Of a DNA stretch of 64,000 nt, positions 27 to 30,412 are shown piece by piece. The notes under the pieces are model-generated. The model worked only from the letters and a program-made list of their open reading frames with translations, ran no database searches and was not told where the DNA came from. The DNA comes from an uncultured Rhodothermales bacterium (GTDB lineage: Bacteria; Bacteroidota; Rhodothermia; Rhodothermales; UBA10348), in contig CAZEHJ010000004.1 in assembly GCA_964512485.1 (NCBI GenBank), forward strand, positions 3,400 through 67,399. The letters are read 5' to 3'. Numbering within the stretch: the stretch's first letter is position 1; every line of letters begins with the position of its first letter. A program made the translations under genes and the position numbers.

Positions 27-893
27 ATGGCCCAGATTATTGACGGAAAAGCAATTTCGGCTCAGGTTCGAGACGAAGTTAAACAGGCCGTAACCGCACG
101 ATCCGAAGCCGGATTACGCGCTCCATATCTTGCGGTCGTTCTGGTCGGCGAAGATCCGGCATCCGCCTCATACGTTCGGGGAAAAGCCCGTGCTTCGGCG
201 GAAGTGGGCATTGAGAGCGACACGATGTCATATGACGCATCGATTGCCGAGGAGGAACTGCTGAACATCGTCGAGAAGCTGAACAATGACGATGGAGTTG
301 ATGGAATCCTGGTCCAACTTCCCCTTCCAGAACATATCGACGATCGTAAAGTGATCAATGCAATCGCTCCATCTAAGGATGTTGATTGCTTTCATCCTGA
401 AAGTGTAGGAAATCTGGTGATTGGCCTCGATGGGTTTGCTCCGGCTACACCAGCCGGTATTGTTGAGCTCCTACAGCGTTCAGGCATTGAGACGAGCGGA
501 AAACACTGCGTTATCGTCGGTCGATCCAACATCGTGGGTAAGCCCCTGGCCAATCTGATGTTGAAAAAGGGCCTCGATGCAACCGTAACGGTGTGTCATA
601 GCCGAACTAAAGACCTGCCCTCGGTCGCCAGACAGGCCGATATTCTGGTCGCTGCAATCGGTCGTGCAAATTTCGTGACGGCCGATATGGTGAAGGATGG
701 AGCAGTCGTGATTGACGTGGGTATCAATCGTGTCGACGATGCGAGCCGGGAACGAGGCTACCGTTTGGTCGGAGATGTGGACTTCGAAGCGGTTTCTGAA
801 AAGGCCAGCTTCATCACACCGGTTCCGGGCGGAGTTGGCCCGATGACCATCGCTGTTCTTCTCCAGAATACATTGAAAGCTGCCTCCAATTGA
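27..893 (+). CDS. folD: Bifunctional methylenetetrahydrofolate dehydrogenase/cyclohydrolase
   Basis: IIDGKAIS start, GILVQLPLP, KDVDCFHP, GRSNIVGKP, ITPVPGGVGPMTIA motifs. Confidence 0.98.
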   Translation: MAQIIDGKAISAQVRDEVKQAVTARSEAGLRAPYLAVVLVGEDPASASYVRGKARASAEVGIESDTMSYDASIAEEELLNIVEKLNNDDGVDGILVQLPLPEHIDDRKVINAIAPSKDVDCFHPESVGNLVIGLDGFAPATPAGIVELLQRSGIETSGKHCVIVGRSNIVGKPLANLMLKKGLDATVTVCHSRTKDLPSVARQADILVAAIGRANFVTADMVKDGAVVIDVGINRVDDASRERGYRLVGDVDFEAVSEKASFITPVPGGVGPMTIAVLLQNTLKAASN

Positions 894-1119: not shown

Positions 1120-4100
1120 ATGCGGACTCTCAACACACCGCGACAAATACGAAACTCGGGACGTGCGCTTCTTAGCGTTCTCTTGTTGTGCCTCCTTTAT
1201 CCGCTTTTCGGCCCTCAGCTGAATGCCCAGGCCATTGGAGACTTCAGATCCCGCAGGAATGGAAACTGGAGTAAAAGCAACCGCTGGGAAGAATACACGG
1301 GCGCCGGTTGGACCAATACCGGAAACACGCCTAATTCAGCGGACGGCGTGATAACGATCCGAAACGGACATAATATCCGCGGCAACGTCAACGCTAATTA
1401 CGATGAGGTCATCATCGAAAACGGCGGAAGTCTCGATCTGACGCAGGTTTTTAAAGTCGTTGATGGCCCTGGAATTGATCTGCAAGTGCATGGAATCCTT
1501 TCTGTCAATCGAAATGTGCGTGTCAGGGGTACGGCATCAGCGTTTTTTTACTCGACGTCCGACGTTGATTTCGGGGGCGGCAACAAGCTCAGATTCGAAG
1601 ACACTACCACAGCCACGTTTGATGGCGGTACAGTTGCAACCGCAAACGGCACATTCCAGGTCGAAGACAATGCTGTAGTCCAGGTGAACAATGGGACCGT
1701 GATAACCAATACGGGCAGAACACTTGTCAGGAACAGTGGATCTCTTACGCTCACTTCGAGCACAGTTGTCAATCAGGGCTTGTTTGACATAAATGGATCT
1801 GGCGCAGTTACCTTCGCGAATGGATCGATATATGAACACGGGCAGGACGGCAGCTACTTCCCGATTGCTGTCAGAACGACGTTTCAGGCTGGTTCTGAAG
1901 CGAGGGTCACCGGTGTTACGACGACCCTTCCTACGAGACTCAACCACACGTTTGACAAGTTCACGTGGAACTCGACTTCTCAAACAGCCGATCTGGACCT
2001 GGCAGCCGGAATTACAGCGATAAACGACGATTTCACCGTTACATCGACTGGAACGGGCTCTATCACTTGGGATGCGTCGGGGTCTGCCACAACTATCGGC
2101 GGTGACTACATCCAATCCGGCGGGGATTTTCGCTATTCAGACACCGGTTCCACCACGATGACCGTTTCAGGCAATCTGGATGTCAACGGTGGTACATTTG
2201 ACATCGCCAATACCTCCGGTACCCCAATTGTAGCCGTCGCCGGCAATTTTTCCGTTACAGGGGCCATGACCGAATCAGGAACTGGCTCTGGTACGGTCCT
2301 CCTGAACGGAGCAGGCGCACAAACCATTACTGCCAACGGTACTCTTTCGGGAAACATCCATGTGACTACCGCTGGCGCTGGACTCGCTTCGCTTACTACT
2401 GATTTGTTGGTCCCGGGAAATCTTACTGAAACGAGCGGTGGGCTCGATTTGGCCAACTTTGGCCTGGAGGTGGAAGGCAATCTCAGCATCACCTCCGCCC
2501 TCTCAAATACCGGACAAATCCTCTTTTCGAGCGCTACGGCAGCTCAACTGCAGCTTCCTGCCGGCTCCAAGACGCTTCCGGATGTTGTTATTGACAAGCC
2601 AGCCTCGTCTCTCACGATTCTTGCTGACGTTGCGACATCGACGACAGTCATCGTGAGGAATGGCACGCTCGACACCAACGGCTTCGAGTGGCTGCTGCCC
2701 CATGGGACAACTCTTTACAACACAGGTACTGTGACGGGAAATGTCACCATTCAGCGCTCATATTCCCAGAACAGCGATGGTTGGAGAATGCTGGCAGCAC
2801 CCGTAACGGGTCTCATGTATAGCGACCTGAATACCTCATTCTGGACGCAAGGAGCCCCTTGGGCATCAAAAATAGAGGGAACGGCAAACCTGCAGTCATT
2901 CGATTTCGCCTCTCAGGGCTGGACTGAATTAGGCGGAGCTGACGCCGGCTTCGGGACCGGTGGCGGCTACATCTTCTATATGTACGCGCTGGATGACCTG
3001 GGAGCACCAATTTTGCCAGCTACCTGGACTGCAACGGGTACTCCGGGAGCGATGGGAACCATGGGCCTCTCTTTCGCGACCGCGATATCAGATTCGTACA
3101 ACCTTATGGGCAATCAGTCCACCACAAATCTGGATTGGGACCTGACGCATGCTGCCAGTACCAACATGGAATCGTCGTATGCCACCTGGGACCCTTCGGT
3201 CACAACGGGTGGTGGCACGACAGGATACAAGTATTATGATGCAACCAGTGGACTCGGAGCGGCCGGTCGGTACGTAGCCCCCTTCACCTCATTCATGGTT
3301 GCCGCCAATGCTGGTGGAGCTCAGATTGTCCCGACCTCGAGCGAAGCGGCTTCCCGACAAACTGCCGTCACGTACGGTAAAAACAACCGCATTGCACCAC
3401 ATTTCCGCCTTTTGCTTGAAGGTGAGGGACTTGCCGAAAACGAGACCTATCTCTCGTACGGCGGCGAGGCCACAGACGAATCCGGTGAATTTGACGTGCT
3501 GCGCCTGCACCCCCTCTCTCTCGATTTTGTGACCCTTTGGTCTGAATCTGATGGACGCAGGCTGGCATTTGACGGCCGCACCATGGACGAAGGTCGCGAA
3601 ATCTACGACCTCACAGTTGCAGCGACCCGAAACGGACAATATTCGCTCACATTGCTTGGCAAACACAAAATCCCCGATTCCTGGACCGTTACGCTTGTTG
3701 ACCTTCAGACGGGCAACAAGGCTGACCTGAGTAACGGCGAAGAAATGCTGTTCCAGACGCGCTCTGAAGACATCGTGACGGTCAATTCAGGCTTCGAATC
3801 CACACGCGCTCCTCGATTCAGGGTGATCGTGACGGATTCAAATCGAACGGTGGAGGCATCTGAAGACCTTTTCGCACAGACAGATGTGCCCGTTCTGAGC
3901 CAGAATTACCCAAATCCCTTCAATCCATCTACTTCGATCCGTTATTCCATCCCACGTTCATCCGTGGTTTCTCTCGAAGTATTTGATGTCCTCGGTCGTC
4001 GTCTGGCCATTCTTGTGGACCAGACTCAGGATGCCGGCTGGCATGAAGTGAATTTTTTGTCTGGAAATCTTGGAAGTGGCACCTATTTATACCGCTTAGT

Positions 4101-4146
4101 CGTTGATGGCCAATCGTTTAGTAGGCCTATGCTCCTGCTTAAGTAG
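1120..4146 (+). CDS. Large secreted adhesin-like protein with beta-helix-type repeats and T9SS C-terminal sorting domain
   Basis: Signal peptide (..QLNA|QA); N-terminal GDFRS..GNW..W..ITIRNGH motif; G/T/N/S-rich repeats of the type xVxGN(L/F)xVxGG; C-terminal SQNYPNPFNPST..VFDVLGR..GTYLYRL..MLLLK CTD (~3892-4146). Confidence 0.8.
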   Translation: MRTLNTPRQIRNSGRALLSVLLLCLLYPLFGPQLNAQAIGDFRSRRNGNWSKSNRWEEYTGAGWTNTGNTPNSADGVITIRNGHNIRGNVNANYDEVIIENGGSLDLTQVFKVVDGPGIDLQVHGILSVNRNVRVRGTASAFFYSTSDVDFGGGNKLRFEDTTTATFDGGTVATANGTFQVEDNAVVQVNNGTVITNTGRTLVRNSGSLTLTSSTVVNQGLFDINGSGAVTFANGSIYEHGQDGSYFPIAVRTTFQAGSEARVTGVTTTLPTRLNHTFDKFTWNSTSQTADLDLAAGITAINDDFTVTSTGTGSITWDASGSATTIGGDYIQSGGDFRYSDTGSTTMTVSGNLDVNGGTFDIANTSGTPIVAVAGNFSVTGAMTESGTGSGTVLLNGAGAQTITANGTLSGNIHVTTAGAGLASLTTDLLVPGNLTETSGGLDLANFGLEVEGNLSITSALSNTGQILFSSATAAQLQLPAGSKTLPDVVIDKPASSLTILADVATSTTVIVRNGTLDTNGFEWLLPHGTTLYNTGTVTGNVTIQRSYSQNSDGWRMLAAPVTGLMYSDLNTSFWTQGAPWASKIEGTANLQSFDFASQGWTELGGADAGFGTGGGYIFYMYALDDLGAPILPATWTATGTPGAMGTMGLSFATAISDSYNLMGNQSTTNLDWDLTHAASTNMESSYATWDPSVTTGGGTTGYKYYDATSGLGAAGRYVAPFTSFMVAANAGGAQIVPTSSEAASRQTAVTYGKNNRIAPHFRLLLEGEGLAENETYLSYGGEATDESGEFDVLRLHPLSLDFVTLWSESDGRRLAFDGRTMDEGREIYDLTVAATRNGQYSLTLLGKHKIPDSWTVTLVDLQTGNKADLSNGEEMLFQTRSEDIVTVNSGFESTRAPRFRVIVTDSNRTVEASEDLFAQTDVPVLSQNYPNPFNPSTSIRYSIPRSSVVSLEVFDVLGRRLAILVDQTQDAGWHEVNFLSGNLGSGTYLYRLVVDGQSFSRPMLLLK

Positions 4147-4259
4147 AGCCGACTCGCCTACGTTCATCTACTTAATTCCTGATCATTTCAGCCGATAGGT
4201 GATGCAGAGGCGGAACGGTTTCGCCCCTCAATTGAGCCTTTAACCGAAGACTCTCTCTC

Positions 4260-4267
4260 AAGGAGGT
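4260..4267 (+). promoter_or_regulatory. Consensus Shine-Dalgarno site of the first pilin-like gene
   Basis: AAGGAGGT 7 nt before ATG at 4275. Confidence 0.8.
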
Positions 4268-4274
4268 ATATCTC

Positions 4275-4781
4275 ATGAAGAAAATGAAATTAACTGTTAT
4301 TGTGACCGGGCTGATCCTGTTTGCAGGATTGGCCACCACCGCAAAAGCGCAGTCTGACAATCATCTGGTAAACGTCGAAGTGCAGGCAATCAACGAGATT
4401 GCAATCGCGGCTGATGTTACACTTCAGATTACGACTGCAACGGCTGGTTCCGATCCAACGGATGCTACTGACAACACTTCGTATGCAATAACGACGAACG
4501 ATGCCGGTGGAACAACCAGAATTACAGCAGCTACGAGCGTCGACCCAGCCACGTTGGGTGATGGTCCTGCTGGTGTAGACATCCAGGTAAACGCAACTGC
4601 TCCTACGGGCGGTTTGGGTGCCGGGAATATTTCTCTCGGAACCGTTGCAGCTAACGTTGTAACCAGTATCGACCCTGTTTCTGAAGGAACACTGACACTC
4701 GCTTACACGCTGAGTGCCACCGCCGAAACTGGACAGCTGGCTTCAACTGCCGTTACAGTTACCTACACGATCGTCAACTAA
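4275..4781 (+). CDS. Secreted pilin-like subunit 1 (putative major subunit)
   Basis: Sec signal peptide (AKA|QS); A/T/V/G-rich beta protein with no Cys; N-terminal alternating LVNVEV strand; C-terminal VTVTYTI strand; paralogous to the next two ORFs. Confidence 0.65.
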   Translation: MKKMKLTVIVTGLILFAGLATTAKAQSDNHLVNVEVQAINEIAIAADVTLQITTATAGSDPTDATDNTSYAITTNDAGGTTRITAATSVDPATLGDGPAGVDIQVNATAPTGGLGAGNISLGTVAANVVTSIDPVSEGTLTLAYTLSATAETGQLASTAVTVTYTIVN

Positions 4782-4797
4782 GCAGTGAAAACTGTTT
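4780..4797 (+). promoter_or_regulatory. Stem-loop directly after the subunit 1 stop codon (GAAA tetraloop)
   Basis: AAGCAGT-GAAA-ACTGTTT, 7-bp stem with one G-U pair. Confidence 0.45.
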
Positions 4798-4832
4798 AGA
4801 ACGCGATCTGTAGATATCCCTTCAAACGATCC

Positions 4833-5369
4833 ATGCGTAGAACAATGCCCATACTGTGGTTATTTCTCGCATGGATCGTTTTGTTTTGGGTTCCCGACTC
4901 AAGGGCCCAAGTCCCTCCTCCTCTTCCTGACGCGCTCATAATGGCGGCATCCAGCCTGACCCTAAGCCAGTCGGTGACGGTTTCCGTTCAGGAAATCAAC
5001 GAACTTTCTATTTCCGGGGATGTGGCAATTACAATTTCCACTGCTTCACCGGGCTCCGGACCTGATCCTGAGAACGACACCTCCGCCAGCTACAATCTGA
5101 CCACCAACGGAGCCAACAAGAAGATTACAGGCTCGATAGATGTGGCCTACACGGCTGGAATCACCCTCTCTCTATTGCTGGCAGCGCCTTCTGGTGGCTC
5201 AGCATCCTCAAAAAACCTCAGCACCACGGCTCAAGACCTCGCCACCGGATTCGGCCTCACAGCTGAATCCAGCCTTGGCATCACCTATACAGCATCCGCG
5301 ACCGTTGACGTAGCTCCGAACGGCCTTGGTGAAACGCGTACGGTAACGCTTACGCTGATGGACAACTGA
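4833..5369 (+). CDS. Secreted pilin-like subunit 2 (Pro-rich N-terminal extension)
   Basis: Signal peptide (SRA|QV); shares VxVxVQxINE..I.xDV..I.TA..GS.P, SY..TTN, AP.GG, Y..SAT and the C-terminal TVT.T motifs with subunit 1. Confidence 0.65.
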   Translation: MRRTMPILWLFLAWIVLFWVPDSRAQVPPPLPDALIMAASSLTLSQSVTVSVQEINELSISGDVAITISTASPGSGPDPENDTSASYNLTTNGANKKITGSIDVAYTAGITLSLLLAAPSGGSASSKNLSTTAQDLATGFGLTAESSLGITYTASATVDVAPNGLGETRTVTLTLMDN

Positions 5370-5370
5370 G

Positions 5371-5880
5371 ATGAGAACATGTAGCCAACATATTCTCAGA
5401 CTTTCCGCAGCAAGCCTGGTCATCCTGTTCAGCCTCCTTTCTGCCCCACAAAGCCGGGCACAGGAGTTTCGCTACAATTCAGGCGGTGGCCCGCTAACTC
5501 TGCTGATCCAGACGGCGACGGCAGGCTCAGAGCCGAATGATGCCACTGACAATGCAACAGAAATCTACTGGGATGCCAACTTCGGCGCCCCATCCAAAAT
5601 TACAGTCTCGACTATCGCACCAGGCCAGTCTTTCCAGCTCTTCCTTTTACTTAGCGTACCAAGCCAGGGTGGTGGTGGACAAGGTGTTGCGCAGCCCGAG
5701 GTCACGTTAGTTGACGGGATGCTCGATGCAGACCTGTTTACAGACATTCCCTCCACCCTGCCAGGACGGCAAGGTTTTGGCACGCTTGAATACCGTGCAG
5801 CCGCTACAGTTGCTGATGGCAACAGTTCGATGCACGGAGATGACGTTCACATAGTCACTTTAACCGTTTTAGCCCAATGA
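5371..5880 (+). CDS. Secreted pilin-like subunit 3 (lacks the N-terminal strand)
   Basis: Signal peptide (SRA|QE); TATAGSEPNDATDN nearly identical to TATAGSDPTDATDN of subunit 1; KIT, LEYRAAAT and C-terminal IVTLTV motifs. Confidence 0.6.
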   Translation: MRTCSQHILRLSAASLVILFSLLSAPQSRAQEFRYNSGGGPLTLLIQTATAGSEPNDATDNATEIYWDANFGAPSKITVSTIAPGQSFQLFLLLSVPSQGGGGQGVAQPEVTLVDGMLDADLFTDIPSTLPGRQGFGTLEYRAAATVADGNSSMHGDDVHIVTLTVLAQ

Positions 5881-6698
5881 GCAGACAAATAGCCCTCATA
5901 CTCACTCTTTTGATGCTGGCTGTTCCTTCCTCTTCGAAGGCACAAATTTCCGTCAGATCTCAGCTTTCACAGGACACCAGCGCCCAACCTGGTGAATCCT
6001 ACGTGGGATCGATACTGATTCGCAACGATACGGATGAAATTCAGCAGGCAAAGATTTATCAGACGGATTATCTGTTCCAGTCTGACGGGTCAAACTATTT
6101 CGGCGATCCAGGAACGATTGAACGTTCAAATGCAAAGTGGATCGACGTTGCATCTTCATCCATGATGGTCCCTCCTCGTGAAGCCATCGAGGTAAGTTAT
6201 CGCGTGAACGTACCAATGGACGTAGATGCCGAACCTCTTCAGGGGTCGTACTGGAGCATCATCATGGTAGAGGGCATTCCCAAGAGCTCTCCAGAGAATA
6301 TTGAGAACGATGTACCAGACGATGCTCTGGGAATAATTCAGGTCACTCGCTACGGTGTACAGGTTGCCACTCACATTGACGGCACCGGCGCTGCAAACCT
6401 GACAATCAGTGAATCAGCTCTGTCCAAAAGCGAAGGCAACATTGCTTCTCTGCAACTGAGCGTGGCAAACGAAGGCGACAAGCTTGTCAGGCCTGAAATC
6501 TGGGTTGAGCTCTACGATGAGGCAGGAAACGCCCTTGGACGCATCGACGGAGTCAATAACCGCATTTATCCAGGAACGAGCGTCAAGCAACAGATTGAAC
6601 TGGGTAAACTCGAAATCGGAAGATACCGGGCCCTTGTCATCATGGATGCCGGAGACGATGAGGTGTTCGCGGCCGAATACAATCTGAACATCGACTAA
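5877..6698 (+). CDS. Periplasmic two-Ig-domain chaperone-like protein (PapD-like / DUF916-like)
   Basis: Signal peptide (SKA|QI); W.DV....VPP..A.EV.Y.V.VP, GSYWSIIMVE, acidic loop then LGIIQVTRYGVQV; second Ig domain with NEG..LVRP..W.ELYD..G and G.YRALVI.D; ATGA overlap with subunit 3. Confidence 0.6.
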   Translation: MSRQIALILTLLMLAVPSSSKAQISVRSQLSQDTSAQPGESYVGSILIRNDTDEIQQAKIYQTDYLFQSDGSNYFGDPGTIERSNAKWIDVASSSMMVPPREAIEVSYRVNVPMDVDAEPLQGSYWSIIMVEGIPKSSPENIENDVPDDALGIIQVTRYGVQVATHIDGTGAANLTISESALSKSEGNIASLQLSVANEGDKLVRPEIWVELYDEAGNALGRIDGVNNRIYPGTSVKQQIELGKLEIGRYRALVIMDAGDDEVFAAEYNLNID

Positions 6699-6735
6699 CA
6701 CCTGACACCTTTCAAAATCGGACACTCCAGGTCTG

Positions 6736-9700
6736 ATGAGACGATCTAGTTACATATCGGTTGTTCTGTTAATCACGGGATTGTTCGCCGTCGCACCAAG
6801 CGCAACGGCGGCTTTTTCTTTTGAAGAGGTTTCTCGGCAGGACGAAGTGTCCATCGATATAATCGGCGGAGACAGCCTTGCTGTGGACCCGGGCGATGTT
6901 GTAACACTGGTCTACAAGATCCACTCAGACCAATCGGGTGTTCGCAATCTGACTCCATCTTTTGACATTCCACAGGGATGGAGCGTCGTTTTTGGAACAG
7001 ATACGCTGAAATTGAGCCCTGAAGAACCCACGACCCGATTGGTGACCTACAAGGTTCCGGAGTCGTCACTGGCCGGTTCCTACAAGATCAACCTTGCGCT
7101 CCTTGACGCAGAGGGAAATGCGATAGGAAATAAAAGTGCCGGTATTGGAGTCAATGCAATTTTCGCGATCGACCTGGATGCAGACCCCATGGAAACCTAT
7201 GCGGCAGCCGGAAAGCTGGTTCAGGTCACTTTCACGCTTTCAAACGACGGCAACGCACCCATCTCTGTGAACCTCGATGCTGTCGACCGCAAGTTTGCTG
7301 ACGTTCGCCTACCATATTCCAGCATTGATCTGGCTCCGAAAGAGTCAGTCACCTTTACTGCCGAAATCAACACAGATGCCAATCTCGATCACACCCAGCG
7401 GGCAAACCTGCGATTTGAAGCCCAGATCGCCGAAAAAAGTGAAATATTCGATTTTGAAACTGTAGCGTTTGATATCGTACCCGTCTATTCCCGAATCCGT
7501 CCAAAAGCGGCCAGAGTGCCTCTGAGCCTTGCTCTTGAAACAGTGGGAGACGAATCCGGAATAATGCCCCAGGCCACAATCGCTGCACAGACTCACCTTT
7601 TGGGTGGCAACGTATCTGTGATTGCTACCCTTGCTGAGATGCCACGTCAGAAGTTCTTCGGAGCGGATCAGCGACTCGAAATTCAGTACGAGAACGAAGA
7701 TGTGACCGTAAAACTCGGCGATCACTCTCAGTCCATCTCACCGATGACGCTCACAGGAGAGCAAGGACTCGGAATTGGAGCAGAAGTTAAAACTACAGAC
7801 TGGACGTTTAAAGGCACTGTCCAACGTTCACGATTCGTATTCCCAGTACAGGAACGATTCGCTGCCTCAGCCGCCTACCAGACATCACCATCGTCCTTTG
7901 TAAGCGCTAACTTGCTGCACCGCAACGAATTTTACGATGGCACCTTACTTACTTTGAGAAGTTCTTCGCAGCCGCTTGGTTCTTCTTCCCGTATGGATGT
8001 CGAGTGCGGAATCGACTCTTCTGAAGCGTTGCGAGATCCCTCCTGCTCGGTTCAGTTCTCAGATAGTGGCTCCCGATTGTCGTACCGAATACGAGCTCAG
8101 AAGGCGTCGGAGTCATTTCCCGGCACACTGGCAGGACTACGCCAGATTTCCGAATACGCATCCTTCAGGCTGAACGACAGATTCCGCCTCGACAATACGT
8201 ATAGACGTTTCGATCGATCGTTGGGCGGCGGATTTGCGCGTTCGAGTTCTCTCGCGAAGGCTGGAGTCACATATACCGATCGCATTCACGGAGGTACATT
8301 GTACCTGACGGCGCATGGTATCCGCACTAAATCGACCTATTCCAATATTCGATCAGACGCGGATCGATCTGAACTTATTGCTCGAACAACCCTGGGATAT
8401 CACATGCGTTCCATAGGGTTAACGGTATCTATGGAGGAAGGTAGAACGACCTCCACCAGCGAGCAGAAGGCAGGGAGTCTGCGCCGTTTCAAGACCAATT
8501 TCAGAGTTTCTCCTCTCCCAAGATGGACGCTGAACGCGTCAGTTGAAGCATCGACGGGCAGCCTTTCCGCTCTTTCTGTACGTCAGTCGCAGAAGCAGTA
8601 TGGTCTCGGCTCCACGATCAGCCTGCCTCGTGAGTGGACGGCCAGTGTGATAGGATTTCACAGTCAGGTCAAAACCCTGATTGATCAGCAGTATTCATCT
8701 CTCAGAAGCGGCCTTTCCAAGTCATTTCGGTCCGGTCGTACTCTTTCCGCCCAGGTTCAGCTGAACCGGAGTACGGGTCGTAGTACCGTTCAAACGGCAG
8801 ATTACCGCCTTTCATTTACTACTCCACTTTCCATGCCGTTTGGTGGAAAAGGATTTGACGATGAAATGCTGCGTGGTCGCGTGACCGATGAAGAAACGGG
8901 ACTCCCATTGTCAGGCGTTCTCGTATTTCTGGGCGACAAACTTGCTATCTCTGATGACAAGGGACGATTTGTCTTCCCGAGACCTGAACTGGCTGTAGAA
9001 TTCCTTCGCGTAGATCAGAACAGTATCGGCTATGATCGCACACCCGCCGCCGCCATGCCGATGGAAATCGATCCATCCTCGTTTCTGAACTCAGAATTGA
9101 ACCTGATCATATCCAAGGCTTCCAGTATTACCGGAGACATTTTCATCTACCACAACAGTGCAAGCAGCGACCTGCTCGTTGGGAATCCATCAGACAAACT
9201 GGTTCAGGAAGGCGGAATCAATGGCGCGATAGTTCAGATTTCCAATGAGAAGCACAGACAGCGTACGAGAACATCACGCAGCGGATCTTTCAGGTTTGAC
9301 CAGCTTCCATCCGGCGAATACACTATTGAGATTATTCGCATTCAACACGAAGAACACCAACAGATTAGCACGACTTCGTTTAAGGTTTTTGTAAAGCAGG
9401 GTGAAAGTGAATACGTGCTATTCAGGGTGGAGCCGAAACGCAAGTCGATAAGGATGATTCAGTCTTCGACCCTGTCAGTAGGTGATCCTAAAGACAACAT
9501 TCGAAAAATACCTGTCCTCAAAGGAGATCACGTTTCTTCGGATTCCGTGAAAACCAAAAAGAATGATTGGAAGGCTCGCACTCCAAATCCTGAAACGCCT
9601 GTTCGAAATGAATCCAAACCTGCAAAAGGGAAATGGTCAGATCAGATGCTGGACTCTGCCAAAGAAGCCCCAAGCGATTCTCTGGACGCATTCTCTGCGG

Positions 9701-10551
9701 TATCAATACCGTATTACGTTGAAATAGAGGGAAATACAGCCAACGAGAAGAGATCCGGGCTCGTCATGCTTCTCTTTGTCCTGTGTGTGCTATTCGTCCT
9801 CCTGGACGTGGATCTTCTCGTTCGCCATGCGATGGATTCATTTGGCGGTCCCATCAAGTCGATGAATTCACCAGTCTGGCTCTGGACGATCAGGCAGGCA
9901 GCTGTTTATGCTCTTGGAATTGGATTTTTTACTCTCTGGGCTGGTGTGCTCGAAGGATTCGCTGTATCTCTGGCTCTTGGAGGCATTACAGTAGCCGTCG
10001 AATCGTGGAATACGTACCGAGCAATTGGGAATATCATGAACCTGACCTTCCTGAGACGGGCCGGATCGGGGTCCTGGATTCCATATAGAAACTCCACTGC
10101 TCGCATCGTCTCGATTTCCCTTGAGTCCGTCGAACTGGAGTTACTGAACGGAAATACCGTCAAAGTGGCCACCCATGCAATTCGACGCCTGTCACCGCGG
10201 AAATGGACGAGTAACTCAGTGGTAACAAATGAGTTTGAAATCCAGATATCCAGGATGTCCAATCTGAAGCTGGTCCGAAGCAGCATTGAGGAGACTCTGG
10301 CCTTGTACGCTCCCGAAGGAACATCCGGAAACGTCCATATCGAGTTTATAGATGTAAATGAAAGTGACACAATTGCTTCGATACGGACCGTAATCGACAA
10401 AGCTCGTCCTGATCATGGCATCATCAGTGCTGTGGTTGAGAAAGAGCTTGCCGCATACGGTGTTGAGCTGAGATCCGTCAGGCTTCATGCGCCAGATTCG
10501 CCCTTCGGCCCGCTCAAACTGGTTCAGCTCCCCGGTACCAAAGCGGCCTGA
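6736..10551 (+). CDS. Usher-like outer-membrane protein (2 Ig domains + beta-barrel + 2 carboxypeptidase-regulatory-like domains) fused to a C-terminal MscS-like module
   Basis: Signal peptide; aa ~38-250 two NEW3/COG1470-type Ig domains; aa ~261-700 amphipathic beta-strands; aa ~712-900 GRVTDEETGLPLSGV..SDDKGRF and GAIVQI..TSRSGSFRFDQLPSGEY; aa ~1005-1255 three hydrophobic helices plus MscS-like cytoplasmic domains. Confidence 0.6.
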   Translation: MRRSSYISVVLLITGLFAVAPSATAAFSFEEVSRQDEVSIDIIGGDSLAVDPGDVVTLVYKIHSDQSGVRNLTPSFDIPQGWSVVFGTDTLKLSPEEPTTRLVTYKVPESSLAGSYKINLALLDAEGNAIGNKSAGIGVNAIFAIDLDADPMETYAAAGKLVQVTFTLSNDGNAPISVNLDAVDRKFADVRLPYSSIDLAPKESVTFTAEINTDANLDHTQRANLRFEAQIAEKSEIFDFETVAFDIVPVYSRIRPKAARVPLSLALETVGDESGIMPQATIAAQTHLLGGNVSVIATLAEMPRQKFFGADQRLEIQYENEDVTVKLGDHSQSISPMTLTGEQGLGIGAEVKTTDWTFKGTVQRSRFVFPVQERFAASAAYQTSPSSFVSANLLHRNEFYDGTLLTLRSSSQPLGSSSRMDVECGIDSSEALRDPSCSVQFSDSGSRLSYRIRAQKASESFPGTLAGLRQISEYASFRLNDRFRLDNTYRRFDRSLGGGFARSSSLAKAGVTYTDRIHGGTLYLTAHGIRTKSTYSNIRSDADRSELIARTTLGYHMRSIGLTVSMEEGRTTSTSEQKAGSLRRFKTNFRVSPLPRWTLNASVEASTGSLSALSVRQSQKQYGLGSTISLPREWTASVIGFHSQVKTLIDQQYSSLRSGLSKSFRSGRTLSAQVQLNRSTGRSTVQTADYRLSFTTPLSMPFGGKGFDDEMLRGRVTDEETGLPLSGVLVFLGDKLAISDDKGRFVFPRPELAVEFLRVDQNSIGYDRTPAAAMPMEIDPSSFLNSELNLIISKASSITGDIFIYHNSASSDLLVGNPSDKLVQEGGINGAIVQISNEKHRQRTRTSRSGSFRFDQLPSGEYTIEIIRIQHEEHQQISTTSFKVFVKQGESEYVLFRVEPKRKSIRMIQSSTLSVGDPKDNIRKIPVLKGDHVSSDSVKTKKNDWKARTPNPETPVRNESKPAKGKWSDQMLDSAKEAPSDSLDAFSAVSIPYYVEIEGNTANEKRSGLVMLLFVLCVLFVLLDVDLLVRHAMDSFGGPIKSMNSPVWLWTIRQAAVYALGIGFFTLWAGVLEGFAVSLALGGITVAVESWNTYRAIGNIMNLTFLRRAGSGSWIPYRNSTARIVSISLESVELELLNGNTVKVATHAIRRLSPRKWTSNSVVTNEFEIQISRMSNLKLVRSSIEETLALYAPEGTSGNVHIEFIDVNESDTIASIRTVIDKARPDHGIISAVVEKELAAYGVELRSVRLHAPDSPFGPLKLVQLPGTKAA

Positions 10552-10632: not shown

Positions 10633-11097
10633 TCAATCTCCGAAGTTGAGAACTGATCCCTCGTATTCTTCCCCGTTAATCGAATAGCAATACTCGATCT
10701 GAGCGCTCTTGGCCAGCATTTCCGCCACCGAGCAGTATTTGCCCAGACCCAATTCGATCGCGCGCCTGGTCTTTTTCTCATCCAGAGTCCCTTCGAATCG
10801 ATAGGACAAGATGATGCGCTCGTAGGTTGAGGGCGAAACACCATCCGGTTTGAATCCATCAACTTGCATATTGAAGCCGGTGAGCTCCTGACGTCCTTTC
10901 TTTAGTATAGAAACGATGTCACCCCCACTGCAGGCACCGATCGCAATCACGATCAGCTGCATGGGGCCTACTCCGTTGCCGTCGCCATCTTCGTACGCCG
11001 TTGCGTCATCGATGTCAACCGAGTGGCCGTCAGCATTGAAGCCGCGAAAATGGAAATCATTGTCCTGTTTTTCAAGGCGAACAGATACTTTGCCCAT
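10633..11097 (-). CDS. OsmC/Ohr family (YhfA-like) protein
   Basis: GVGPMQL..AIGACSGGDIVSILKKGRQ and KYCSVA two-Cys motifs; probable start MGKVSV at 11097 (ORF track extends to 11151). Confidence 0.9.
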   Translation of the reverse strand: MGKVSVRLEKQDNDFHFRGFNADGHSVDIDDATAYEDGDGNGVGPMQLIVIAIGACSGGDIVSILKKGRQELTGFNMQVDGFKPDGVSPSTYERIILSYRFEGTLDEKKTRRAIELGLGKYCSVAEMLAKSAQIEYCYSINGEEYEGSVLNFGD

Positions 11098-11107
11098 CAG
11101 ATAGTCC

Positions 11108-11908
11108 TCAGTCGGTGGCGGATTCTTCTTCGTTCCAAGTCCAGGTACCAAGATCTTCCAAGGTGTGATAAGCCGTCAGGTCGTGTTGAATGGGTGTAAT
11201 TGAGACCCACCCATTTTCGACAGCCCATAAATCGGTGTTGTCGCCTGTGTCCAGGTTTACAAATGTACCTGATAGCCAGTAGTATGGTCTGTTAAACGGG
11301 TCGAGTCGTTCAGCAAACGACTCCTCCCACATGGATCTGGCCTGTCTCGTAACCATGCAGCCTTGTAATTCGGACAGCGGAAGATCTGGGACGTTCACGT
11401 TGAGCAGAATTCCGGGCATCAACCCTCCCTGCAGTACACGAACTGCTATATCTTTTGCCACTCGTGCGGATGCTTCGAAGTCGCCCCCTCCCCATTTGCA
11501 GTAGGAAAAGGCGATTGCGGGTATTCCCAGAATGGCCGCTTCTGTGGCCGCGCTGACCGTACCGGAATAGATCACGTTTACAGCCGTGTTGGGCCCATGA
11601 TTAATCCCAGAAACGACCAGATCAGGCTTTCTGGGGACGAGCTTGTCGAGTGCAAGCTTCACACAGTCGGCTGGAGTCCCCGAGACCGCATAGGCTTGAA
11701 TCTGACCCGATGGTCCCCGGAATGGCCAGGGCCGGGCTCTGACAGGATCACGCATCGTTATCGCATGGCCTACCGCACTCATTTCCTGAAGCGGGGCAAC
11801 GACTATCAGATCTGCAATTGAATCCAGAGCTGCAGCGAGCGACAGAATACCGGCAGCTTCAATTCCATCATCATTGCTGATCAGAATCAGCGGGCGATCA
11901 TTTTTCAT
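11108..11908 (-). CDS. surE: 5'/3'-nucleotidase SurE
   Basis: [39 protein letters not shown] motifs. Confidence 0.97.
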
Positions 11909-27221: not shown

Positions 27222-28772
27222 ATGAATCCTTTCGATAGTCGTGGTGTCCCGAACCACCGAATCAATTCCAGCATGGATGAGCACACGTCTCCCGTGACGG
27301 AGGACGAAGCGCATCATCTTTTGTCTCGTCTTACCTATGGCGCGACCATCGATCGTCTCGCTGAGTCTGTTGGATTGACGGCCGGAGAGATTGTGGACCA
27401 ACTGCTCGACGAAGCTGAAGCGCCTCTCCCCCCAGCTCCATCATGGATCACCGTTCAGCGCCCACCTCGAGGTGCGCCGTCTGAAGATTTTACAGCGTTC
27501 AACGCGAGCAACAGGACCTGGAGGGATGAACTTCGCACCTCCTGGATTCAGGACATGGCGGAAAATGGACTACGTGGAAGGCTTGCCTTGTTCTGGCACA
27601 ATCATTTCGTAACGAGCTACGTCGTGTATTCCTATGCCGCTATGGGATACCACTATCTGAAGACGTTGCAGACTCACTCAACGGGAAATTTCAAGGATTT
27701 TGTCCATGCCGTCGGTCGTGATTCAGCCATGTTGGTATATCTGGATGGTGACACAAACAGGGCTTCCGCTCCAAATGAAAACTATGCTCGTGAACTGCTT
27801 GAGTTGTTCACGATGTCCCCTGTTGGGCCTGACGGTTCTCCGAATTACACGGAGGATGACATTCAGGAAATCTCTAGAGCCATGACAGGTTGGAGAATTA
27901 CTCCTTCATCGACATGGTTTTCATACATGTTATTCACCCGTTACGACGACGGGGACAAAACCATATTCGGGCAAACATCAGACTTCAACTACAATGAAGT
28001 CATCGACCTGATTTTCCAGGAAAGAGCAACTCAGATTGCCCACTTCATCGCCGAGAAACTCTATTGCGAGTTCATCTATCAGGATCCTGACCCGGAAGCG
28101 ATAGCAGACCTTGCACAAACCTTCGTCGATTCTGAATTTGAGCTTCGTCCTGTACTTCGAAAACTGTTCACCAGCCAACGGTTTTTGGACCAGAATTTCG
28201 CAGGATCTCGAGTAAAGTCTCCAGTGGAATTCCTACTAGGGCATTTCCGGGAAATCGACATATTGCCTACAGAAGATCAGGCAGAAGAAATTTGGCGCGG
28301 CGCTGCTGAAATGGGCCAGAGTATTTTTGATCCTCCGAACGTTGCCGGATGGCCAGGCCAGCGCTACTGGCTCTCCACAGACACACTCCCGAAACGCTGG
28401 AGCTCTTCAGAGTATTTGAGTTCGCGTTCCATCTCGCGAGTGTATCTCATAAACTTCTCCGAAAACCTGGTCGGCCAGGCCAATATCTATGCAGGAGTAG
28501 ATCTACCCGTCGCACTTGCGAAACACTTCCTGAAGGTGCCCATCGATTGGGTTGAAGTACCAAATATTTCAGAGCCATTCGAGGGAGATCTAGACGCCAA
28601 CCCGCTTCCAGAATGGTTGGTCAATGGACCGGAGAACCAGCGAAACCTCGTCAAGCTCTTCCTCGGATCCGTGCCGTGGTACGAATATTCGATTCGAACC
28701 GGAGTGGGGCACGTCATGATCGCCAACTTCCTGACGAAGCTGTCGCAATTTCCGGAATACCAACTCATTTAA
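27222..28772 (+). CDS. DUF1800 family protein
   Basis: HLLSRLTYG, LALFWHNHF, AMLVYLD...N...PNENYARELLELFTM, PPNVAGW. Confidence 0.93.
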   Translation: MNPFDSRGVPNHRINSSMDEHTSPVTEDEAHHLLSRLTYGATIDRLAESVGLTAGEIVDQLLDEAEAPLPPAPSWITVQRPPRGAPSEDFTAFNASNRTWRDELRTSWIQDMAENGLRGRLALFWHNHFVTSYVVYSYAAMGYHYLKTLQTHSTGNFKDFVHAVGRDSAMLVYLDGDTNRASAPNENYARELLELFTMSPVGPDGSPNYTEDDIQEISRAMTGWRITPSSTWFSYMLFTRYDDGDKTIFGQTSDFNYNEVIDLIFQERATQIAHFIAEKLYCEFIYQDPDPEAIADLAQTFVDSEFELRPVLRKLFTSQRFLDQNFAGSRVKSPVEFLLGHFREIDILPTEDQAEEIWRGAAEMGQSIFDPPNVAGWPGQRYWLSTDTLPKRWSSSEYLSSRSISRVYLINFSENLVGQANIYAGVDLPVALAKHFLKVPIDWVEVPNISEPFEGDLDANPLPEWLVNGPENQRNLVKLFLGSVPWYEYSIRTGVGHVMIANFLTKLSQFPEYQLI

Positions 28773-28786
28773 CAGGAGAACGAACG

Positions 28787-30412
28787 ATGTGTGATCACAA
28801 TCACAGTTCTCCTATCAAGGGAGAGCGACTCGAAGACGGCAAACACCACGCCACTCATCACCGACAGTGGTCCCGTCGCCAATTCATGGCAGGGTTGGGA
28901 ATGTCCGCGACTGGTGTCGCGATGACACTGGGAGGAGTTCCTATCAAATCTTACGGGGCATCCCCTCTACTGTCGAAGCTGCGCAATAATCAGAGTGACC
29001 GGATTCTTGTCCTGGTTCAGCTTTCGGGCGGCAATGATGGACTCAATACTGTGGTTCCCTACACAAATGATGTGTACTACCAGTTGAGGCCCAACATTGA
29101 CATCGCGGCAAATTCGGTCCTACCGCTTACCGCTGATCTTGGGCTGCATCCTCTTCTGGCCCCGTTTGAAAGCATGTATCACGATGGCACCCTTGAGATC
29201 GTTCAGGGTGTTGGATACGAGAATCCCGTTCTGTCACACTTCTCGTCTACGGACGTGTGGGCGACTGCCTCCGACCCATCGGATATCGGATTATCAGGCT
29301 GGCTGGGCAGGTATCTTGAAGACACCAATCCAGAGCATTTCGAGAATCCAGCAAATTACCCATTGGCCATCCAACTGGGAAATGGATCTCCGCTGGTATC
29401 TCAGGGGTCTGTAACCGGTATGGGAGTGACGTTCCCGGATCTGGACCTCCTCCGGCGCTTTTTCGAGACTGGCAGCCTGTACGATGAACAATTTGCTCCT
29501 GCTACTCCCTACGGAGGCGAGCTCTCCTACGTGCGGTCCATCGCAAACAACGCTGTTCGATACGCTGATACCATAACAGTGGCGGCTGACACCGGCATTA
29601 ACCTGGCTGAATATCCATCAACCAATGGGCTGTCAGGAAATCTGGCGACAACAGCACAGTTAATTCGTGGAGGGCTTTCCACGAGTATCTATCACCTGAA
29701 CCTGGCTGGTTTTGACACACATTCTGGTCAGTCCGGAAGACACGCCACGTTGATGGAAACTTTGTCTCTCGCGCTGTCATCGTTCATGCAGGACCTTCAG
29801 GCCGATGGACTCGACGAAAGGGTTCTGGTCATGACTTTCTCCGAGTTCGGACGAAGGATTTATCAGAATGGCTCCGCCGGAACAGATCATGGTACAGCGG
29901 CACCCCTGTTTATTCTTGGCGGAGGCGTTAATGGTGGAATTATAGGGGACCACCCGAGCTTGACGGATCTCGACCGGGGTGGCAATATGATAAATGGAAT
30001 CGATTTTCGATCGGTCTACGGCACCGTCTTGACCGATTGGTTCGGACTCCCCAATAACGATGTGACCGAATTATTGGGCCAGGACTACGGTCAGATTCCG
30101 ATCATCGATTCCATGTTCTCGACGAGCACGGATCAGACAACGTTGCCGCAGTCAATTTCGCTTCTCAGCAACTATCCGAATCCGTTCAGCGGACAGACGC
30201 TCCTAACCTTCGACATGGATCGCGCGGATCACGTATCGTTGTCTGTGTTCGACATGGCTGGGCGGCGAGTGGCGTCACTGACCGACCAGACGCTTCCTCC
30301 GGGATCACATGAACTGAGTTTCGAGGCCAGAGGACTACCAGCGGGTGTGTACCTGGCACGGCTTCAGACGTCTTCGGGAACGCTTACGAGAAAGCTCGTC
30401 GTCGTTCGATAA
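28787..30412 (+). CDS. DUF1501 family protein with Tat-like motif and T9SS C-terminal domain
   Basis: Start MCDHNH at 28787 after AGGAGA; SRRQFM motif; LVQLSGGNDGLNT, GFDTH, FSEFGRR, GTDHG, DFRSVY; C-terminal NYPNPF..G.Y..RL CTD. Confidence 0.92.
   Translation: MCDHNHSSPIKGERLEDGKHHATHHRQWSRRQFMAGLGMSATGVAMTLGGVPIKSYGASPLLSKLRNNQSDRILVLVQLSGGNDGLNTVVPYTNDVYYQLRPNIDIAANSVLPLTADLGLHPLLAPFESMYHDGTLEIVQGVGYENPVLSHFSSTDVWATASDPSDIGLSGWLGRYLEDTNPEHFENPANYPLAIQLGNGSPLVSQGSVTGMGVTFPDLDLLRRFFETGSLYDEQFAPATPYGGELSYVRSIANNAVRYADTITVAADTGINLAEYPSTNGLSGNLATTAQLIRGGLSTSIYHLNLAGFDTHSGQSGRHATLMETLSLALSSFMQDLQADGLDERVLVMTFSEFGRRIYQNGSAGTDHGTAAPLFILGGGVNGGIIGDHPSLTDLDRGGNMINGIDFRSVYGTVLTDWFGLPNNDVTELLGQDYGQIPIIDSMFSTSTDQTTLPQSISLLSNYPNPFSGQTLLTFDMDRADHVSLSVFDMAGRRVASLTDQTLPPGSHELSFEARGLPAGVYLARLQTSSGTLTRKLVVVR

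Follow-up and report, generated by a model that had tools for sequence, protein, structure and literature searches.

What do six adjacent genes for exported proteins assemble in an uncultured Rhodothermales bacterium, and how are they related to the surface systems described so far? The genes, g1 to g6, lie in a stretch of 64,000 nt from contig CAZEHJ010000004.1 (assembly GCA_964512485.1; hereafter the window) and encode a large secreted protein (g1), three small subunits (g2, g3 and g4), a protein of two immunoglobulin-like (Ig) domains (g5) and a much larger beta-rich protein (g6). The textbook example of a fibre assembled across the outer membrane independently of energy is the chaperone-usher (CU) pilus, known mainly from work on Proteobacteria. 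A first-pass annotation of the window proposed an undescribed CU-like system for a surface fibre. This interpretation is supported by the co-conservation of the genes and by the predicted folds of g5 and g6, and we consider it moderately probable that the locus encodes an undescribed CU-like pathway that assembles a surface fibre. Its conserved core consists of the small subunits, g5, and g6. The system is CU-like by predicted fold and operon logic, whereas its sequences place it outside the CU family.

A conserved core of subunits, g5 and g6

One genome per species was scanned, and 304 species genomes proved to encode a g5 relative; the best 80 were taken further, and 82 related loci are compared throughout. 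A g6-like gene lies directly 3' of g5 in all 82 loci; between one and eight subunit genes lie 5' of g5, and one additional subunit gene is often found 3' of g6. A failure of co-conservation had been named beforehand as grounds for giving up the proposal; the genes proved to be co-conserved across phyla, with the core co-linear in every locus. This synteny rules out a chance juxtaposition of genes, and the subunit-g5-g6 arrangement is far beyond chance. Genes around the module vary from locus to locus, and the module appears to move as a unit because its neighbourhoods otherwise differ.

The hosts belong to Rhodothermales/Rhodothermota, Ignavibacteria/Ignavibacteriota, Bacteroidota, Zixibacteria, and Gemmatimonadaceae/Gemmatimonadota, together with Bacteriovoracaceae/Bdellovibrionota, Syntrophales and other Deltaproteobacteria/Desulfobacterota, Planctomycetota (Phycisphaerae and Pirellulales), and the gammaproteobacterium Thiodiazotropha. 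Two metagenome-assembled genomes (MAGs) carry unexpected labels, Synechococcus (L071) and Clostridia (L074), and these contigs may be mis-binned rather than true hosts. No core protein matches a dedicated Pfam or NCBIfam family at the curated cut-off. In the library of papers searched, we found none that describes this system, ties CU systems to the WxL systems of Gram-positive bacteria, or reports CU-like machinery from Ignavibacteria or Bacteroidota.

Table 1. Features of the locus and its flanks, in window coordinates.
Feature	Position	Strand	Length	Description	Basis
g1	1120-4146	+	1008 aa	Secreted protein, C-terminal type IX secretion system (T9SS) type A sorting domain	
g2	4275-4781	+	168 aa	Subunit with signal peptide and N-terminal amphipathic strand	
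g3	4833-5369	+	178 aa	Paralogous subunit with extra proline-rich N-terminal extension	
g4	5371-5880	+	169 aa	Paralogous subunit without the ~15-residue N-terminal strand	
g5	5877-6698	+	273 aa	Two beta-sandwich domains, periplasmic, chaperone-like and WxLIP-like	
g6	6736-10551	+	1271 aa	Usher-like protein with fused MscS-like module	
g6 residues ~38-248	6847-7479	+		Two N-terminal beta-sandwiches, NEW3/NPCBM_assoc-like and DUF7507-like	Pfam, AlphaFold2
g6 residues ~279-695	7570-8820	+		~25 consecutive antiparallel strands, putative barrel with or without plug	AlphaFold2
g6 residues ~711-900	8866-9435	+		Two CarboxypepD_reg (transthyretin-like) beta-sandwiches	Pfam PF13620, AlphaFold2
g6 residues 1005-1271	9748-10548	+		MscS-like inner-membrane module, tail ...KAA	Profile search, transmembrane prediction
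folD	27-893	+		Upstream flank	Pfam
OsmC-like gene	10633-11151	-		Downstream flank	Pfam

The two-domain protein g5

The most conserved component is g5, with a mean column identity of 56% vs 25% for the subunits; such conservation fits a single protein that handles many diverging partners. The protein collection holds 741 homologues, and the 120 matches listed are 44-89% identical to g5 and unannotated (“hypothetical”). AlphaFold2, supplied with an alignment of 40 sequences, returned a confident model of two beta-sandwich domains (predicted local distance difference test [pLDDT] 91.6; predicted template-modelling score [pTM] 0.81) in which a 23-residue loop (135-157) ahead of the last strand of domain 1 is of lower confidence. 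The protein has a signal peptide and lacks a transmembrane helix. As modelled, it has the two-Ig layout of a periplasmic chaperone, in agreement with the initial description of the 273-aa product.

When the model was compared with the PDB by Foldseek, the top match was WxLIP of Enterococcus faecium (9i25_C, E 4.5e-13, TM-score ~0.5; also 9i1y), and the top matches include a WxLIP-WxL complex. The next matches, at E 1e-8 to 1e-6, are the CU chaperones CfaA, YadV, CsuC, CupB2, FimC, Caf1M, DraB, FaeE, and SafB, with a TMt of 0.5-0.58 for the first six. The first-pass annotation had offered a CU-like and a WxL/DUF916-related pathway as alternatives, and these are the two groups that the predicted fold of g5 resembles most, WxLIP first and then CU chaperones.

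The locus could accordingly be read as a diderm counterpart of the WxL/WxLIP (DUF916-DUF3324) display complex of Gram-positive bacteria rather than as a pilus that polymerises. On this view the small proteins would sit at the surface as monomers or oligomers, g5 would hold or present them via strand insertion, and g6 would serve as outer-membrane translocon and anchor. Beyond the structural match, weak similarity to Pfam WxLIP_PGBD (PF06030, DUF916) recurs in g5 members: it is sub-threshold in 18 of 40 (best E 8.9e-4), lies in the N-terminal domain, and spans positions 23-116 of the 121 in the profile. No DUF3324 match was found in the g5 family. In WxL clusters, too, a single two-Ig protein accompanies secreted paralogues that are small and beta-rich (PMC10599100, PMC9772566), and WxLIP has been suggested to bind WxL by strand insertion (PMC10599100). 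Unlike WxLIP, however, g5 has no C-terminal transmembrane helix; its homologues stop right after the second beta-sandwich, without a hydrophobic tail. The subunits lack both WxL motifs (g2 contains no tryptophan at all, and the Pfam WxL domain matched none of 92 subunits), the hosts are diderm, and the usher-like g6 that is always present here has no counterpart in WxL clusters. Furthermore, the division of the subunits into strand-bearing and strand-less types, described below, is a prediction of a polar polymer. We regard a WxL-like display complex as unlikely.

The small subunits

Paralogy among the three subunits of ~170 aa, noted at the outset, is confirmed by blastp (g2-g3, 38% over 121 aa, E 2e-14; g2-g4, E 6e-8; g3-g4, E 7e-5). 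Across the related loci the family comprises 282 open reading frames (ORFs) with a median length of 172 aa. Signal peptides finish in ...A-Q. Hydrophobic residues alternate (V 68%, L/V 79%, V 94%) along the conserved amphipathic strand at the N-terminus, (T/S)-A-T-(Q/H)-T-V-T-(L/V)-x-V, which reads SDNHLVNVEVQAINE in g2. Other conserved features are an A-G-x-x-P turn, a K-K-I-T-V strand, and a C-terminal strand, (H/R)-T-(V/I)-T-(Y/L/F)-T-(L/I/V), that ends two to three residues from the carboxyl end; a conserved strand near the carboxyl end is likewise a feature of CU subunits.

The three subunits appear to differ in role. A strong Shine-Dalgarno sequence (AAGGAGGT) precedes g2 and none of the other five genes, which suggests that g2 is the most abundant product, and it is likely the major subunit. 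The g3-type subunits carry a proline-rich N-terminal extension; that of g3, QVPPPLPDAL..., precedes the N-terminal strand and is kept in g3 orthologues. The strand itself, scored as present where at least 70% of its alignment columns are filled, occurs in 210 of 283 subunits. It is absent from 52 of the 77 subunits encoded directly 5' of g5, the position held by g4, and at other positions it is present in 182/186 and absent in 3/186. A polar polymer built through donor strands predicts one acceptor-only subunit per system, and a strand-less subunit of the g4 type would fit that place. CU tip subunits have no N-terminal extension, and the strand-less subunit of each locus parallels tip adhesins that lack a donor strand. 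By this analogy g4 is a candidate tip or initiator subunit, although, unlike the CU adhesins, the g4 type has no separate receptor-binding domain.

Ten loci of proteobacterial or planctomycete type have a divergent small secreted protein directly before g5 (153-195 aa, no Pfam match). It occurs, for example, at L081:9384-9971 and also in L067, L069, L072, L073, L076, L078, L080, and L082. Its C-terminus, ...YYTVVDIQ, is similar to the subunit C-terminal strand, and the protein is probably a divergent tip-type subunit overlooked by the subunit hidden Markov model (HMM).

Type V pili (FimA/Mfa1) resemble the present system in their occurrence in the Fibrobacterota-Chlorobiota-Bacteroidota (FCB) group and in assembly by strand exchange, as proposed here. 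The pilins of type V pili are roughly twice as large; they are lipoproteins, undergo processing by a protease, and involve neither chaperone nor usher. In contrast, the present subunits are smaller, have dedicated partners in g5 and g6, and lack the lipobox cysteine, as the first-pass annotation had stated (a lipobox-like string occurs in just 4 of 283 family members). A type V pilus was rejected on these grounds of size and lipobox. No consistent Pfam or PDB sequence relative of the subunit family was found; g4 reaches E 1.3e-4 with FimA-like_C, under the cut-off, and a FimA-like match recurs in 2 of 92 members.

The usher-like protein g6

Residues 1-920 of g6 are present in 68 of 68 full-length homologues from the related loci, and the sequence beyond is variable. 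The structural model covers residues 26-925 (900 residues) and was computed from an alignment of the 16 full-length homologues that the homologue search returned. It rests on 16 sequences because a search with the middle region gave zero matches; Pfam likewise gave none in the strand region. With an overall pLDDT of 77 and a pTM of 0.42 (pLDDT mostly 75-95 in the strand region), the model predicts two beta-sandwiches, ~25 hairpin strands, and two further beta-sandwiches. Its best bacterial Foldseek matches are FimD (9fy9_D, E 2.8e-9; 3rfz, 6e14, 9bog) and PapC (7lhh_C, 6cd2_C), with alignments of 794-941 columns. Eukaryotic multi-Ig ciliary proteins also rank among the top matches, and no other outer-membrane barrel family occurs among the best 50. 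The predicted order of beta-sandwich, barrel-like region, and two beta-sandwiches resembles that of ushers, and the CarboxypepD_reg pair (E 2.7e-12, two matched stretches) stands where the usher C-terminal domains CTD1 and CTD2 stand. The absence of a barrel from the 1271-aa protein had also been named beforehand as grounds for giving up the proposal; the model predicts a long run of antiparallel strands there, a putative barrel. Unlike those of ushers, the N-terminal domains of g6 are of the NEW3/CARDB type and the C-terminal domains are transthyretin-like.

CarboxypepD_reg domains are typical of the SusC-like transporters of Bacteroidota, and the Pfam match in g6 could point to a module for nutrient capture or uptake, with g6 as a barrel resembling SusC and TonB-dependent transporters and the small proteins binding substrate. 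However, g6 has no Pfam match to a TonB-dependent receptor or plug, its CarboxypepD_reg domains are C-terminal rather than N-terminal to the barrel, and no TonB-dependent transporter appears among its best 50 structural matches. A SusC/TonB-dependent transporter was rejected because the plug and receptor signal is absent, and an uptake module is highly improbable in our judgement.

Proposed envelope tethers at the C-terminus of g6

In the window, ~100 low-complexity residues link the last beta-sandwich of g6 to an MscS-like module of three transmembrane segments, a beta domain, and an alpha/beta domain. Pfam alone did not detect the module in the window protein, and MS_channel_2nd was sub-threshold in 3 of the 16 homologues. 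A profile of the 16 long forms, searched against PDB sequences, matched E. coli MscS (2oau, 6rld, and others) at E ~1e-8 over MscS residues 36-269, and also matched YnaI; the other PDB match was a transthyretin-like domain. The module aligns with TM2, the pore helix TM3, the beta domain, and the alpha/beta domain of MscS. It is highly divergent within the MscS family: phmmer with the module against 1.84 billion representatives found only 17 relatives, of which 10 are 1220-1328 aa long and carry the module C-terminally; the remainder are shorter proteins, some of them probably fragments. Forms of ~1240-1340 aa with a membrane module are confined to the closest relatives of the window locus. A periplasmic location of the N-terminal part of g6 would agree with the predicted topology (N-terminus out, three transmembrane segments, C-terminus in). 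MscK similarly places a large N-terminal part in the periplasm; in g6 the predicted fold of this part is usher-like and beta-rich, not helical.

Most g6 homologues have no transmembrane helix besides the signal peptide. Half of them (34/68) end in one to three SPOR domains by a local HMM, and Pfam SPOR (PF05036) scored above its cut-off in three of six g6 tails and just under it in a fourth. The remaining 34 include 25 without an extension, seven with a membrane module, and one (L014) with a single transmembrane helix. Another g6 (L017:997-4188) was scored as single-transmembrane, a call that is probably false; its C-terminal 120 aa hold two LysM-like repeats by eye, with no significant Pfam match. 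The C-terminal extension of a further homologue (L012:9383-12640) is neither SPOR nor membrane module, and Pfam was again not significant. SPOR domains bind peptidoglycan, so the g6 C-terminus would be periplasmic, as in usher C-terminal domains. To our knowledge, C-terminal SPOR, transmembrane, or MscS tethers such as these have not been described for ushers.

The usher-MscS fusion of the first-pass annotation is thus real, but it is rare, belongs to a narrow clade, and lies outside the conserved core. As judged from the protein sequences, it may be one among several alternative envelope tethers of g6. The closest relative genome, a Rhodothermales MAG (L005; CBDFGO010000003.1, 1-14639), holds two tandem copies of the system. 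In one, g6 has 1177 aa and a tether of two SPOR domains; the other has g1 and an MscS-fused g6 (1265 aa). From this tandem, the duplication would seem to be older than the switch of tether.

Membrane-anchored g6 forms also share a cytoplasmic tail, h-L-R-L-v-K-G...(K/R/D/E)-A-A-COOH (window 10537-10548). The terminal -A-A is conserved in P0001-P0016, except the truncated P0003, and in L005-L009, L011, L014, and L015; SPOR-type and short forms lack it. By analogy, the tail recalls Ala-Ala C-terminal degradation tags.

The tethers also suggest an envelope-structural or peptidoglycan-associated complex in place of a secretion or fibre system. Here g6 would be an outer-membrane or periplasmic scaffold tied to peptidoglycan through SPOR or to the inner membrane through MscS, and g5 and the small proteins would be periplasmic partners with, for example, tethering, division-site, or osmotic-sensing functions. 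The frequency of SPOR domains and the MscS-like module in the window's clade favour such a complex, as do the envelope and stress housekeeping genes that neighbour the locus (OsmC, SurE, Skp). Yet rapidly diverging subunits beside a conserved g5 are the pattern of a surface fibre with a shared chaperone, the architecture of g6 is usher-like, and the genomic context varies among loci. A purely structural complex is, in our estimation, quite improbable.

The T9SS protein g1

The T9SS type A sorting domain of g1 (residues 930-1002) was identified by TIGR04183 (E 5e-8, 32.8 bits vs the NCBIfam cut-off of 23); Pfam Por_Secre_tail (PF18962) scored 21.6 bits, under its cut-off of 27. Full-length orthologues, 38-59% identical, lie directly 5' of the subunit genes in 12/12 loci of Rhodothermales type, and none was found in the other related loci. 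A subunit-like domain was sought in g1 and not found. The T9SS cargo singled out earlier as an unusual addition therefore has a genuine sorting domain, but g1 is a lineage-specific (Rhodothermales) accessory outside the conserved core. It is possibly a surface adhesin.

A second ORF in the window (28556-30409, + strand) has a T9SS C-terminal sorting domain like that of g1 (phmmer E 2.4e-15), and the genome thus appears to encode other T9SS cargo.

Weight of the evidence for a chaperone-usher-like system

The CU systems Fim, Pap, CFA/I, and Csu combine small paralogous subunits, a two-Ig periplasmic protein, and a large outer-membrane protein, and the present core has a corresponding composition, with g6 as the putative outer-membrane protein. 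The predicted fold of g5 matches CfaA, YadV, CsuC, and FimC, and that of g6 has FimD and PapC as its best bacterial matches. The proposed correspondence to a CU operon consequently holds for gene order and predicted folds, but does not extend to detectable sequence homology with classical CU proteins. The taxonomic range differs as well, that of the present system being centred on the FCB group.

Several results weigh against assembly by a CU-like route. Neither Pfam, including its fimbrial families, nor hhalign against chaperones, ushers, and pilins of E. coli K-12 (NC_000913.3) detected sequence homology. Forty g5 homologues gave no PapD_N or PapD_C match at E<=1, 16 g6 homologues gave no match to Usher, PapC_N, or PapC_C, and g5 and g6 thus fall outside the PapD-like and Usher sequence families. 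With hhalign, the g5 family reached a probability of 4% against six chaperones, g6 one of 1% against five ushers, and the subunits one of 21% against 14 pilins, with C-terminal strands alone aligned. PDB sequence and profile searches with g5, with the subunits, and with the N-terminal 1000 aa of g6 returned nothing useful. The Foldseek TM-scores of g6 are ~0.2, as expected of a flexible, multi-domain model, and given these scores and the pTM the strand number of the barrel and the presence of a plug are not established. In a simple amphipathicity analysis, the barrel strands were indistinguishable from Ig-domain strands. The union of an outer-membrane barrel and inner-membrane helices in one polypeptide is unusual. 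Finally, every related locus examined comes from a MAG.

Proposed assembly pathway

We propose that the small subunits, with g2 as the major form, g3 as a variant, and g4 as a tip-like form, are exported by Sec and captured in the periplasm by g5, which would act as a chaperone related in fold to both Gram-positive WxLIP and PapD-type proteins. From g5 the subunits would be handed to g6, a putative usher-like platform in the outer membrane. The N-terminal strand of one subunit would complete the fold of its neighbour beside the conserved C-terminal strand, by donor-strand complementation, and the strand-less g4 would come to lie at the distal end of the fibre. The periplasmic C-terminus of g6 would be tethered to the envelope, through SPOR and peptidoglycan in half of the homologues and, in the narrow clade of the window, by the MscS-like inner-membrane module at the end of its long linker. 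As an accessory secreted by the T9SS in Rhodothermales, g1 may contribute adhesion.

A bolder version of this pathway, which we offer tentatively and think doubtful, is that subunits, g5, and g6 form a third, deeply separate branch of strand complementation that would connect Gram-negative CU pili with Gram-positive WxL/WxLIP complexes, and that the usher spans both membranes, with an MscS-type heptamer coupling secretion to membrane tension or osmotic state.

Operon signals and genomic neighbourhood

The six co-directional ORFs have the coordinates and spacing first reported, with intergenic gaps from g1 to g6 of 128, 51, 1, -4 (an ATGA overlap of g4 and g5), and 37 nt. Judged by sequence, the tight spacing and the translational coupling implied by the overlap would fit an operon. 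All six products have a hydrophobic, signal-peptide-like N-terminus. A scan for promoters and terminators found sites no commoner than in shuffled sequence, and an Rfam scan gave zero matches.

Pfam confirms the position of the locus between folD and the OsmC-like gene, which is followed on the same strand by surE, panB, and an OmpH/Skp gene. In E. coli K-12 (NC_000913.3), the sfm fimbrial operon adjoins folD (L084) and the yad fimbrial operon adjoins panB (L085). That these two genes flank both the E. coli fimbrial operons and the window locus is most likely a coincidence.

About 35 loci of Ignavibacteria and Bacteroidota have a divergently transcribed gene pair immediately 5' of the subunit genes, which encodes a HisKA histidine kinase (~260 aa) and a sigma-54-dependent response regulator of NtrC type (~460 aa). 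They include L018, L023, L025, L029, L030, L033, L035 (5180-7345, - strand), L044-L048, L056, L063, L066, and L070. The adjacency of this pair to the subunit genes suggests sigma-54 control of the system in these loci. The pair is not present in the window, where the sigma-54 promoter pattern is not enriched and has no match upstream of g1 or g2.

Implications

Overall, we propose that the locus represents a new class of CU-like machinery, unrelated in sequence to the classical one, in which the unusual usher-MscS fusion and the T9SS accessory are lineage-specific. If this is correct, the three-part principle of subunit, chaperone, and usher would extend to the FCB group and other phyla, and hundreds of “hypothetical” proteins would gain a function. 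Likewise, g5 may connect this machinery structurally with the WxL/WxLIP clusters found in enterococci, listeriae, and lactobacilli, which are themselves poorly understood. The variable tethers of g6, whether SPOR, single transmembrane helix, or MscS-like module, raise the question of how an outer-membrane assembly platform may be anchored to the remainder of the envelope or regulated from there.

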